From sequence record MH752840.1: a stretch of 64,000 bases of DNA; one strand, written 5' to 3'. This document shows, one piece after another, positions 10,443-14,148 of this stretch. Numbering within the stretch: the first letter of the stretch is position 1; every line of letters begins with the position of its first letter. This stretch comes from Escherichia phage vB_EcoM-Pr121LW. Under the pieces are notes generated by a model. That model did no database searches and was not told the origin of the DNA. It saw only the letters and a program-made list of their open reading frames with translations. The translations under genes were made by a program, and so were the position numbers.

Positions 10443-10527
10443 GGTGAGTTAATTCCGTAGGGGTAGCGGGGCAGACTGTAAATCTGTTATCATTGCGATT
10501 CGGGTGGTTCGACTCCATCACTCACCA
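10443..10527 (+). tRNA. tRNA-Tyr (anticodon GTA), long variable arm
   Basis: Anticodon arm GCAGACTGTAAATCTGT and variable arm resemble E. coli tRNA-Tyr; acceptor GGTGAGT/ACTCACC; CCA encoded. Confidence 0.65.
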
Positions 10528-10833: not shown

Positions 10834-10930
10834 GCTAGGTAAGCCCTTTGGCAAGGGCGAGGATTTTTAATCCTGAAAATAGACGAGGTAGTCGTTGAAT
10901 ACATAGGTGGTTCGATTCCACCACCTAGCA
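10834..10930 (+). tRNA. atypical tRNA-like element (anticodon possibly TTT; about 29-nt variable region)
   Basis: Acceptor GCTAGGT/ACCTAGC, D-arm GCCC..GGGC and T-arm GGTGGTTCGATTCCACC fold, but anticodon stem is 4 bp plus a mismatch and total length about 97 nt. Confidence 0.3.
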
Positions 10931-10937
10931 CCTTTTT

Positions 10938-11598: not shown

Positions 11599-11997
11599 AT
11601 GATTTCAGGTTTAACATGGCTTAGTAGGTATAGAGGGATCATAAAAGGTTTAGTTTTTGCAGCGGCTATAGGTACAGCTTATCTTGGGGCCGTGTATTGG
11701 TTTAACTCTAAGCTTAATGATGCCTACCAAGAGGGTGTGTCAGCAACAGAGTTAAAGTGGGAACGGATCCTTGATCAGCAACAAAAGCAGGCCGACAAAA
11801 TTAAAATGGGCCACGCAGAGGAGGTTAAAAACCTTGAAAAATCTCTTTCTGATCTGCAGGATAAATTAAATATAGCTGAGAGGGCAGGTAGAGAAAAGCA
11901 GATTATCTACCTCCAATCACCTGAAGGTAAGAAGTCAACACTCCCTGATCAGCTTATAGATATTTATAATGAGAGTATCAATCAGGAGGATCTATGA
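11599..11997 (+). CDS. i-spanin (Rz-like)
   Basis: N-terminal transmembrane segment GLVFAAAIGTAYLGAVYWF followed by a coiled-coil periplasmic domain. Confidence 0.55.
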   Translation: MISGLTWLSRYRGIIKGLVFAAAIGTAYLGAVYWFNSKLNDAYQEGVSATELKWERILDQQQKQADKIKMGHAEEVKNLEKSLSDLQDKLNIAERAGREKQIIYLQSPEGKKSTLPDQLIDIYNESINQEDL

Positions 11998-12281
11998 GAG
12001 TTGCTGCACTGTTTATTGTGTGCTTTTTATTATGCGGGTGTGCAACCAGCGTTGAGAGAGAATACAAGATTGACCCTCCTGATGTAGGAAGGTTGATTGT
12101 TAAACCCCCGGAAGGTGCCATGAAACCACCTGCTAAAGCTATGCCTTTGAAGAAAGGTGCGCCAGATGCAGTGAATTCTGGCATTATGAGGGATAATAAT
12201 CTGTCTTGTAGCAATGATAGAGCTAAATTGATCATTTTGCAAGACTATATTAGAACACTGTTTCCAAAGGAGAGAGGTTAA
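11994..12281 (+). CDS. o-spanin (Rz1-like outer-membrane lipoprotein)
   Basis: Signal peptide with lipobox-like FLLCGC, proline-rich mature region; overlaps i-spanin stop; AGGAGG RBS. Confidence 0.55.
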   Translation: MRVAALFIVCFLLCGCATSVEREYKIDPPDVGRLIVKPPEGAMKPPAKAMPLKKGAPDAVNSGIMRDNNLSCSNDRAKLIILQDYIRTLFPKERG

Positions 12282-12706
12282 TGTCTAAGATTTACGGACC
12301 GTGTTCTGAAAAGCAGAAGATGATCCTCGAAAACGATGCAGATATTTTGGTAATCGGCGGTGCCGCAGGGTCTGGCAAGTCGTTCCTCTTGCAGTTGATG
12401 CCGCTTAAAATTATCGATGACCCCCACAGCTCTGTGGTTATGTTCCGAAGAACAACCCCACAGTTGGAAGGTGAGGGTGGACTATGGCCTAAAGCAGTAG
12501 CTATTTATAGCGATCTGCCTGAAAACATTAAGCCAAAGTTCAGAGAGAAGGATCATAAGTTCATTTTTCCACGGTTTGATCCGAACACTGGCAAGTGGGA
12601 TAGAAGCAAAAAGGGAGCTGTTGTAAAATACTGCCACATGGAGTATGTACAAGATAAGCTTAACCATCAAGGGCTTGAGTACACCATGGTTTGCTTCGAT
12701 GAGGGT
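12281..12706 (+). CDS. terL: terminase large subunit, exon 1 (ATPase domain)
   Basis: Walker A GGAAGSGKS, Walker B-like MVCFDE; ORF stops at TAA 12707-12709, taken as the first intron codon. Confidence 0.7.
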
Positions 12707-13023
12707 TAATTTGTAGCTCTCGTAAAACCTCCCTAATTGCGGGGAAATCTTTACTATTAATACCACCAACCTGTCATGGTAACATGATAGAGGCTTCGAA
12801 GAGAGATCGAAGGTATGGTAACAGTGTGTTAATTTAGATAATCCGCAGCGAAGCATCCGAGAGGATGAACGTTCAACGACTAGTCGAAAGACGTAGAATC
12901 AAGCGATTCGAAACGGGAGGGTAAGCGGTTGTTGTCGCTTATAAGATATAGTCTGGTCTGCATGGAGACATGCAGCTGCCTGAAAAATGGCGGGGCAAGA
13001 CTAGCGACCTTGCCCGAACATAG
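12707..13023 (+). ncRNA. group I self-splicing intron (no internal ORF); boundaries approximate
   Basis: Conserved core motifs GTTCAACGACTAGTCG (12871-12886) and AAGATATAGTC (12943-12953); splits terL; 5' exon ends in U, intron ends in G. Confidence 0.6.
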
Positions 13024-14148
13024 ACGACACAATTCGAATGGGAGCAGATAGACTATCTGATGTCTCGTCTGCGATCTCAGTCAAAGTATCCATCAAGGAT
13101 GGTTATCAGCTGTAACCCTGATTCAGAACACATGCTTGCCAAACTGGTTAGATGGTGGTTGGACGATGAAGGGTATCCAGATCCGGAGAAATGTGGTAAG
13201 AAAAGATATTTTATCCGACGCGACGGTGAATTTATTTGGGGGGACTCTAAGGAGGAGTTGATAGAGAAATACACCACGGTTAACGGACTGGGTGTAGAGA
13301 TCAAGCCAAGACCGTTGTCATTCTCGTTCATAGGCGCAACAATATTCGATAATCCTGTCTGTTTGAGAGACAACCCAGAATACCTTGCTTTCCTCGAAGG
13401 TCTACCAGAGCTGGAAAAAGCTCAGCTTCTCCATGGTAACTGGTTTGCAAAGCCTGAGGGTGCAAACTATTTTCAAAGATCTTTCCTTCGTGATGCCGAT
13501 AGAGTACCCCTTGGATCAGTATCTTGCAGGGCATGGGATAAGGCAGGAACCGAGAGAACTTCTGGCAATAAATTTCCTGACTTTACTGCCAGTATTAAGG
13601 TAAGTAAAGATAGCGACGGCTTTTATTACCTGTCAGGGGATTATTGTCCTGAAAACGTGGATGACGGGAGGTATTCCACAGGTCTGGAAGGCAAGTTCTG
13701 TAAAAAGGCTGGTGAACGAGATGTGATCATCAGGAAACAGGCGCAGTTTGATGGTGATGATTGCATAATCGTATTCTCTGTGGACCCTGGTCAGGCAGGT
13801 AAGAGTGAGTTCTTAACCTCATCCAGATCCTTGCTCGCAGAAGGGTTCAGGGTTGAAGAAGACCCAATGCCTTCCAACAAGTCTAAACTGACAAGGTTCT
13901 CACCTTTTGCCAATCTTGCCCAACAAGGGATGGTGAGGATTGTAAAATCCAGTTTCCATCCTGATACTCTGGAAGCATTTCTGACCGAACTTGAAAAATT
14001 CAACGGGGAAAGATCAACATTTAACAGAAAAGACGACTGGGCTGACTGTGTAGCTTCTGCAATTAATTTCCTGGAGAAAGAGGAGGTAGCACTTCCTTGT
14101 GTGATTCCATCAATCTCATCACCTTCTATGTTCAAGCGTTTTATCTAG
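13024..14148 (+). CDS. terL: terminase large subunit, exon 2 (nuclease domain)
   Basis: Frame opens at 13024 right after an in-frame TAG; encodes TTQFEWEQIDYLMSRLRS... continuing the TerL fold with acidic nuclease motifs (DPGQAGKSEF, DDWADC). Confidence 0.65.
   Translation, partial: TTQFEWEQIDYLMSRLRSQSKYPSRMVISCNPDSEHMLAKLVRWWLDDEGYPDPEKCGKKRYFIRRDGEFIWGDSKEELIEKYTTVNGLGVEIKPRPLSFSFIGATIFDNPVCLRDNPEYLAFLEGLPELEKAQLLHGNWFAKPEGANYFQRSFLRDADRVPLGSVSCRAWDKAGTERTSGNKFPDFTASIKVSKDSDGFYYLSGDYCPENVDDGRYSTGLEGKFCKKAGERDVIIRKQAQFDGDDCIIVFSVDPGQAGKSEFLTSSRSLLAEGFRVEEDPMPSNKSKLTRFSPFANLAQQGMVRIVKSSFHPDTLEAFLTELEKFNGERSTFNRKDDWADCVASAINFLEKEEVALPCVIPSISSPSMFKRFI

Follow-up and report, generated by a model that had tools for sequence, protein, structure and literature searches.

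The window, that is, the whole 64,000-nt stretch of Escherichia phage vB_EcoM-Pr121LW (MH752840.1) that we analysed, belongs to an rV5-like Vequintavirus, and its large-terminase (TerL) region is 99.0% identical to that of Escherichia phage LL12. Immediately upstream of TerL, at 11599-12281, lie the genes for an i-spanin (132 aa) and an o-spanin (95 aa, with a lipobox-like LLCGC); their start and stop codons overlap, and the same annotation is found in LL12 and the BASEL phages. The tRNA cluster contains an unusually long (97-99 nt) tRNA-like gene at 10834-10932, which ARAGORN reports as "tRNA-???" with a 4-base anticodon and Rfam scores at 37 bits; its counterpart in the LL12 record is called tRNA-Lys, with an inconsistent isotype prediction. 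A further tRNA at 10443-10527 is recognized by Rfam (39 bits) and not by ARAGORN.

The reading frames of TerL are as the original prediction had described them. An N-terminal ORF at 12281-12709 contains GGAAGSGKS, ends in ...MVCFDEG, and stops at a TAA at 12707-12709, and a second frame, different from the first, is open from 13024 (TTQFEWEQIDYLMSRLRS) to 14148, directly preceded by an in-frame TAG at 13021-13023. The gap between them holds no credible ORF, as had also been claimed: stops occur throughout all six frames, and none of the three short overlapping ORFs (two on the minus strand, of 124 aa and 50 aa, and one of 40 aa on the plus strand) matches a Pfam family. We arrive at the following arrangement, in which the intron boundaries were set from intron-less alleles, seven other intron-bearing alleles, and an alignment of the T4 td family of introns.

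12281-12706, plus strand: TerL exon 1, 142 codons, with Walker A (GGAAGSGKS) and Walker B (...VCFDE), from the ORF listing
12707-13026, plus strand: predicted group I intron, 320 nt, no ORF, starting with an in-frame UAA and ending at G13026
13027-14148, plus strand: TerL exon 2, 373 codons plus stop, encoding the remainder of the ATPase domain plus the RNase H-like nuclease domain

An ORF-less group I intron splitting TerL had been proposed together with a covariance-model search as a check, and that search is strongly positive. Rfam family RF00028 matches 12697-12975 on the plus strand at 84.1 bits (gathering score 50; E = 6.2e-20), covering model positions 1-253 of 253, and a permissive Rfam scan (E up to 0.1) of the whole 64-kb window returns no second intron. 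The two core elements named in the prediction are present, GTTCAACGACTAGTCG at 12871-12886 and AAGATATAGTC at 12943-12953. The minimum-free-energy fold has a z score of -6.4, with none of 100 shuffled sequences folding as well, and thermodynamic folding that makes no use of the Rfam model recovers P1, P3, P4, P5, P6a, P7.2, P8, P9, P9.1, and P9.2. The parts of the intron RNA, all on the plus strand, are these.

12701-12721: P1 hairpin, 12701-12708 paired with 12714-12721, guide sequence at 12712-12721 (Rfam, minimum-free-energy fold)
12728-12733: 5' strand of P3, CCUCCC, pairing with GGGAGG at 12915-12920 (Rfam, minimum-free-energy fold)
12735-12847: P4-P5 domain; the P element AAUUGCGGGGAAA contains P4 (Rfam, minimum-free-energy fold)
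12738-12743 with 12842-12847: P4
12747-12750 with 12836-12839: P5
12848-12872: P6/P6a, with GC...GU closing pairs and a hairpin at 12854-12867 with a GAGA loop (Rfam, minimum-free-energy fold)
12871-12882: R element GUUCAACGACUA; its 12878-12882 is the 5' strand of P7, pairing with 12949-12953 in the S element (Rfam)
12883-12892: P7.1, GAAA loop (read from td-family alignments)
12896-12909: P7.2, AAGC loop, with compensatory changes in 4 of 5 pairs among 8 family members
12922-12941: P8 hairpin, with an 18-nt core at 12923-12940
12943-12953: S element AAGAUAUAGUC, comprising J8/7 and the 3' strand of P7 (Rfam, RNAalifold)
12958-13015: 3' domain, beginning with P9 at 12958-12975 (GAGA loop)
12978-12980 with 12989-12991: P9.1 (covariation)
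12993-12999 with 13009-13015: P9.2 (covariation)
13016-13026: 3' tail GAACAUAGACG, with terminal G13026; G13023 is allele-specific and is A in relatives

Two features are particular to this lineage: neither the Rfam alignment nor the minimum-free-energy fold places a P2-like hairpin between P1 and P3, and P5 carries an extension of about 80 nt that forms two hairpins, at 12771-12790 (GUAA loop) and 12794-12812. The two strands of P7 are GACUA (12878-12882) and UAGUC (12949-12953); the helix is also found by RNAalifold in five family members and does not vary across the family, hence there is no covariation to count. RNAalifold also suggests that GUUCA, at the start of the R element (12871-12875), pairs over a long range with UGAAC in the 3' tail (13015-13019). 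This long-range helix is nearly invariant in the td-like family, so covariation is uninformative about it, and its outermost pair is an A.C mismatch in the window. Extra P7.1 and P7.2 helices between the 5' strand of P7 and the 3' strand of P3 are reportedly the subgroup IA signature that Michel and Westhof set out in 1990. We assign the window intron to subgroup IA, as a td-like member, with its finer placement in IA2 as against IA1 or IA3 being provisional. It is very probable that 12707-13026 is an ORF-less, T4 td-type group I intron of subgroup IA interrupting a Vequintavirus TerL gene.

Comparison with relatives shows selection on the fold of the intron RNA. In 8 family members from five different genes, the pairs of P7.2, P9, P9.1, and P9.2 are formed in 95.4% of cases, as against at most 36% in slid controls, and 11 of the 22 pairs of this 3' module show compensatory changes, a value reached by none of 500 shuffles. 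The formal count is limited to the 3' module, because the large P5 insertion misaligned the 5' half in the full-length MAFFT and RNAalifold analysis; compensatory changes in P3 and P4 were read by eye only, P3 appearing at the same place as CUAGG/CCUAG in the Vibrio relative and GUACG/CGUAC in the Xanthomonas relative. Among the near-identical Vequintavirus copies, all helix substitutions but one keep the pair, and the remaining changes fall in loops. The pair-keeping changes are C-G to U-A at 12775/12786 (a compensatory change in the 12771-12790 hairpin, found in rV5 and in one further Vequintavirus locus, L011), G.U to A-U at 12928, G-C to G.U at 13015, and G.U to G-C at 12788. Only U12714 to C, in LL12, disrupts a pair, the last one of the P1 extension.

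The prediction was right in placing the 5' splice site after U12706: the Rfam alignment supplies the P1 that had not been recognized by eye, pairing G12701-A12708 with U12714-C12721 and putting a U12706.G12716 wobble at that point. This last nucleotide of exon 1 completes a GGU (Gly) codon and is U in all intron-bearing alleles and C in intron-less ones. Both junctions had been called approximate, and the second of them, placed after G13023, turns out to be 3 nt off: the comparative data put the 3' splice site after G13026, for a predicted intron of 320 nt. Position 13023 is A in LL12, rV5, DrSchubert, HdK5, RudolfGeigy, and two IMG/VR contigs, and therefore is not the obligatory terminal G, whereas all 8 intron-bearing alleles have a G at the position of 13026; in the seven others the intron ends ...GAACATAAACG/ACACAA (the slash marks the splice junction here and below). 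The intron-less alleles MG065647 and OR845187 (about 99% identity) read GAG GGC/ACG CAG TTC, that is, DEGTQFEW with one Thr. The same spacing is kept without any indel in 29 homologues, down to 46% identity, beside the invariant Walker B residues D140 and E141, and DEGTQFEW is also found in the 515-aa proteins of Murica (AKU44155, the reference used by the LL12 annotators) and HeinrichReichert (QXV79789). The alignment with intron-less homologues that had been suggested for fixing the junction thus confirms that splicing would restore one in-frame TerL, but a junction at G13023 adds a Thr (DEGTTQFEW). Furthermore, the td-family introns of T4 (td), of phiKZ-like phages, and of a Xanthomonas and a Vibrio phage have tails that align as GAACAUAA(N)NG/, in which the terminal G lies 10-11 nt past GAAC; in the window, G13026 lies 11 nt past GAAC and G13023 8 nt.

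If the 3' splice site of this group I intron lay after G13023, the intron would be 317 nt long and would yield a TerL of 516 aa with the junction GGT/ACGACACAA. In the window allele 13023 is indeed a G, the resulting junction is in frame, and a possible 4-bp P10 (A13024-C-G-A13027 with U12711-U-G-U12714) has no fewer pairs than the P10 of 3 bp available to G13026. Short pairings of 2-4 bp do not by themselves separate the two sites. G13026 is compatible with a candidate P10 of A13027-C13028-A13029 with U12712-G12713-U12714 and a candidate P9.0 of A13024-C13025 with G12956-U12957; because P10 and P9.0 fit both sites, the choice rests on the comparative data. Against G13023 stand the A in the seven other intron-bearing alleles, the extra Thr that neither the intron-less alleles, AKU44155, and QXV79789 nor the 29 homologues with their invariant spacing contain, and a distance past GAAC shorter than that of any td-family terminal G, so that we regard exclusive use of this site as very improbable. 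The A-to-G change at 13023 is specific to the window allele and that of phage phiWec191, and it leaves two candidate terminal Gs 3 nt apart (AUAG/ACG/). There is a slight chance that the ribozyme uses both, giving two TerL isoforms that differ by one Thr beside the Walker B glutamate, which, if true, would give a natural example of tandem alternative 3' splice sites among phage group I introns.

With the site after G13026, the predicted junction is GAGGGT/ACACAA, in full GATGAGGGT/ACACAATTC, and the peptide spanning it reads ...MVCFDEGTQFEWEQIDYLMSR or, further extended, ...FDEGTQFEWEQIDYLMSR. The correct gene model is then join(12281..12706,13027..14148), and the spliced TerL has 515 aa and is 100% identical to a database protein (P0001) that occurs on intron-less contigs. 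In Pfam, Terminase_6N covers residues 25-295 of the spliced protein and Terminase_6C residues 395-490. Terminase_6N thus extends across the splice junction (residue 142), which puts the intron within the ATPase domain, two codons past the Walker B Asp-Glu, and the original description of a break between an ATPase-domain ORF and a nuclease-domain ORF is wrong. That group I introns interrupt conserved catalytic motifs of phage genes and are polymorphic in their presence is textbook knowledge.

The position of the break also bears on whether TerL could be naturally split into proteins of 142 aa and 362 aa, the second starting at an ATG at 13060, with the gap being a decayed intron that no longer splices. 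That ATG exists, and many database entries list the two pieces as separate proteins; these entries, however, stem from automatic gene callers unable to model introns, which cut the essential TerL into "terminase family proteins" of 142 aa and about 362 aa and have affected hundreds of database contigs. Such a split would fall within the ATPase domain, two residues past the catalytic Walker B Glu, and a start at 13060 would drop TQFEWEQIDYL, which is conserved in all homologues, while purifying selection, with compensatory changes, acts on a ribozyme core that is intact. The scenario of two separate polypeptides with this domain break in related phages, named in the prediction as its possible refutation, can be dismissed, since at least 40 records of related phages contain uninterrupted, near-identical alleles, and for the window we consider a split TerL extremely unlikely. 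Still less credible, to the point of being negligible, is a gap bridged without splicing, by translational bypassing or frameshifting, or produced by a sequencing or assembly artefact. Nothing specific speaks for it beyond the different frames of the two exons; frameshifting cannot bridge 320 nt with stops in all frames, the same insertion recurs at 95-100% identity in dozens of independently sequenced phages, and the gap scores as a complete group I intron.

For the group I intron ending at G13026, standard group I chemistry suggests how splicing would proceed. The primary transcript would fold into the ribozyme, and an external guanosine would attack after U12706, presented by P1 in its U.G wobble with G12716. 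The freed 3'-OH of exon 1 would then attack after G13026, joining ...GAU GAG GGU to ACA CAA UUC... and allowing synthesis of a 515-aa TerL colinear and identical with the product of the intron-less allele. Unspliced RNA would yield a 142-aa fragment only, and splicing would be required for the essential TerL because the intron opens with an in-frame UAA. The intron of phiWec191, whose listed host is E. coli, is 100% identical to the window intron; the allele is thus compatible with a working TerL, and the occurrence of this same intron in an essential gene suggests that it is capable of splicing. The searchable literature yielded neither RNA-level nor in vitro evidence of splicing for this exact intron, and no splicing assay of the Vequintavirus TerL intron as such.

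Within Vequintavirus, the TerL site occurs in three states: without an intron, in at least 40 phage records including Murica; with an ORF-less intron, as in the window; and with an intron of 883-884 nt in which a 581-nt arm with the gene for an endonuclease VII homing enzyme takes the place of the P8 core. Of about 118 records, roughly 55-70 have the intron in one form or another. The flanking exon codons are GGT/ACA/CAA in intron-bearing alleles vs. GGC/ACG/CAG in intron-less ones, so that only synonymous third positions differ. The U of GGU in the intron-bearing alleles is needed for the splice-site wobble, and the differences between ACA/CAA and ACG/CAG may reflect co-conversion or endonuclease resistance. 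About 18 GenBank records numbered MG0656xx and named "Campylobacter phage" are 97-99% identical to E. coli Vequintavirus across TerL; in the one record examined, MG065647 (UNVERIFIED), the taxonomy line reads Vequintavirus, and the host label of these records is probably wrong.

The endonuclease VII form (DrSchubert, HdK5, navn, JES2013, and others) has a ribozyme core and both splice junctions identical to those of the window, and differs in P8, which is a different stem, GAAUGUGUAA/UUACACAUUC, with a 196-aa Endonuclease_7 ORF (PF02945, E = 2e-21). In our set of loci it lies at 1027-1909 of the DrSchubert locus (L003) and also in L004, L009, and L011, matching window 12923-12940; the DrSchubert-type P8 replaces the 18-nt core with an unrelated 10-bp stem, and the stop codon of its ORF overlaps J8/7. 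The window intron contains no remnant of the Endonuclease_7 ORF, which suggests that P8 was swapped as a whole module. It also lacks any homing endonuclease ORF, given the stops in all six frames and the absence of Pfam matches among the short overlapping ORFs, and is not mobile by itself; the endonuclease VII-type enzyme of sister phages could spread it in mixed infections.

A second TerL intron, 979 nt long and containing an HNH_3 homing gene, occurs in rV5 and HdK5, and RudolfGeigy has it as an ORF-less element of 268 nt that scores 95.6 bits with Rfam. It is absent from the window, where the empty site is 13344/13345 (GCA ACA ATA/TTC GAT, motif GATIFDNP); RudolfGeigy reads ACC ATT/ where the window has ACA ATA, a synonymous difference. 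The TerL locus is thus a natural series of no intron, an ORF-less intron, and an intron with an endonuclease VII-bearing P8 in near-identical genomes, to which this independently variable site 318 nt downstream adds, and the series is well suited to the study of intron and homing-endonuclease dynamics.

The intron is already described and annotated for rV5-like phages. The rV5 genome paper (PMC3606486, 2013) has a section entitled "Introns in terminase," the LL12 announcement (PMC6658697, 2019) reports predicted introns disrupting the TerL and DNA polymerase genes, and in GenBank the LL12 TerL carries the note "intron-containing gene" while those of rV5 and BASEL are join() features. The first TerL intron of rV5 (NC_011041, ORF64ABC), LL12 (MH491969), and the BASEL Vequintavirus phages is orthologous to that of the window, with 95-100% nucleotide identity and the same insertion site, gene, and phage genus. 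The allele of the window and phiWec191 differs from theirs in having G rather than A at 13023 and an extra A in the P9.1 loop, and rV5 has the second TerL intron that the window lacks.

In the related Pectobacterium phage CB7 (Certrevirus), splicing of a TerL intron has been demonstrated by RT-PCR and Sanger sequencing (PMC7344957). CB7 belongs to the same subfamily as the window phage (Vequintavirinae), and its intron interrupts the homologous TerL at the same Walker B hotspot; in the CB7 locus (L012, positions 1-1360) it splits Walker B itself (GVD/EGTQF), 6 nt upstream of where the Vequintavirus intron sits, carries an HNH gene, and stays below the Rfam gathering score as a single match. 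Judging from these features, the hotspot received the CB7 intron in a separate insertion event. Two different introns, those of CB7 and Vequintavirus, target the same few TerL codons. A further precedent, cited by the rV5 authors (PMC3606486), is a group I intron in the large terminase of a siphovirus, an unrelated phage from an unrelated host that we liken to the window intron by description.

Outside terminase genes, the T4 td intron shares P7.1 and P7.2, P9, P9.1, P9.2, and the GAACAUAA..G tail with the window intron, the two being about 81% identical over the last ~79 nt, and both begin with an in-frame UAA; the T4T record labels the td intron "group 1A." Other relatives interrupt two adjacent unnamed ORFs in phiKZ-like phages, the ribonucleotide reductase gene of Bacillus phage phiNIT1, the major capsid gene of a Vibrio phage, and the DNA polymerase gene of a Xanthomonas phage, and score 63-94 bits with Rfam. 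The homing-gene-bearing introns (DrSchubert, the second rV5 intron, T4 td, and CB7) are not detected by Rfam as single matches; large ORF insertions break the model, so these misses reflect a limit of the tool, not the absence of an intron. The I-TevI ORF sits in the P6 loop of the td intron. In the T4T record it lies within the td intron, upstream of the 3' core, whereas the window intron has no ORF. In addition, the window intron differs from td in its host gene (TerL rather than thymidylate synthase), in having no P2-like hairpin between P1 and P3, and in its ~80-nt P5 extension.
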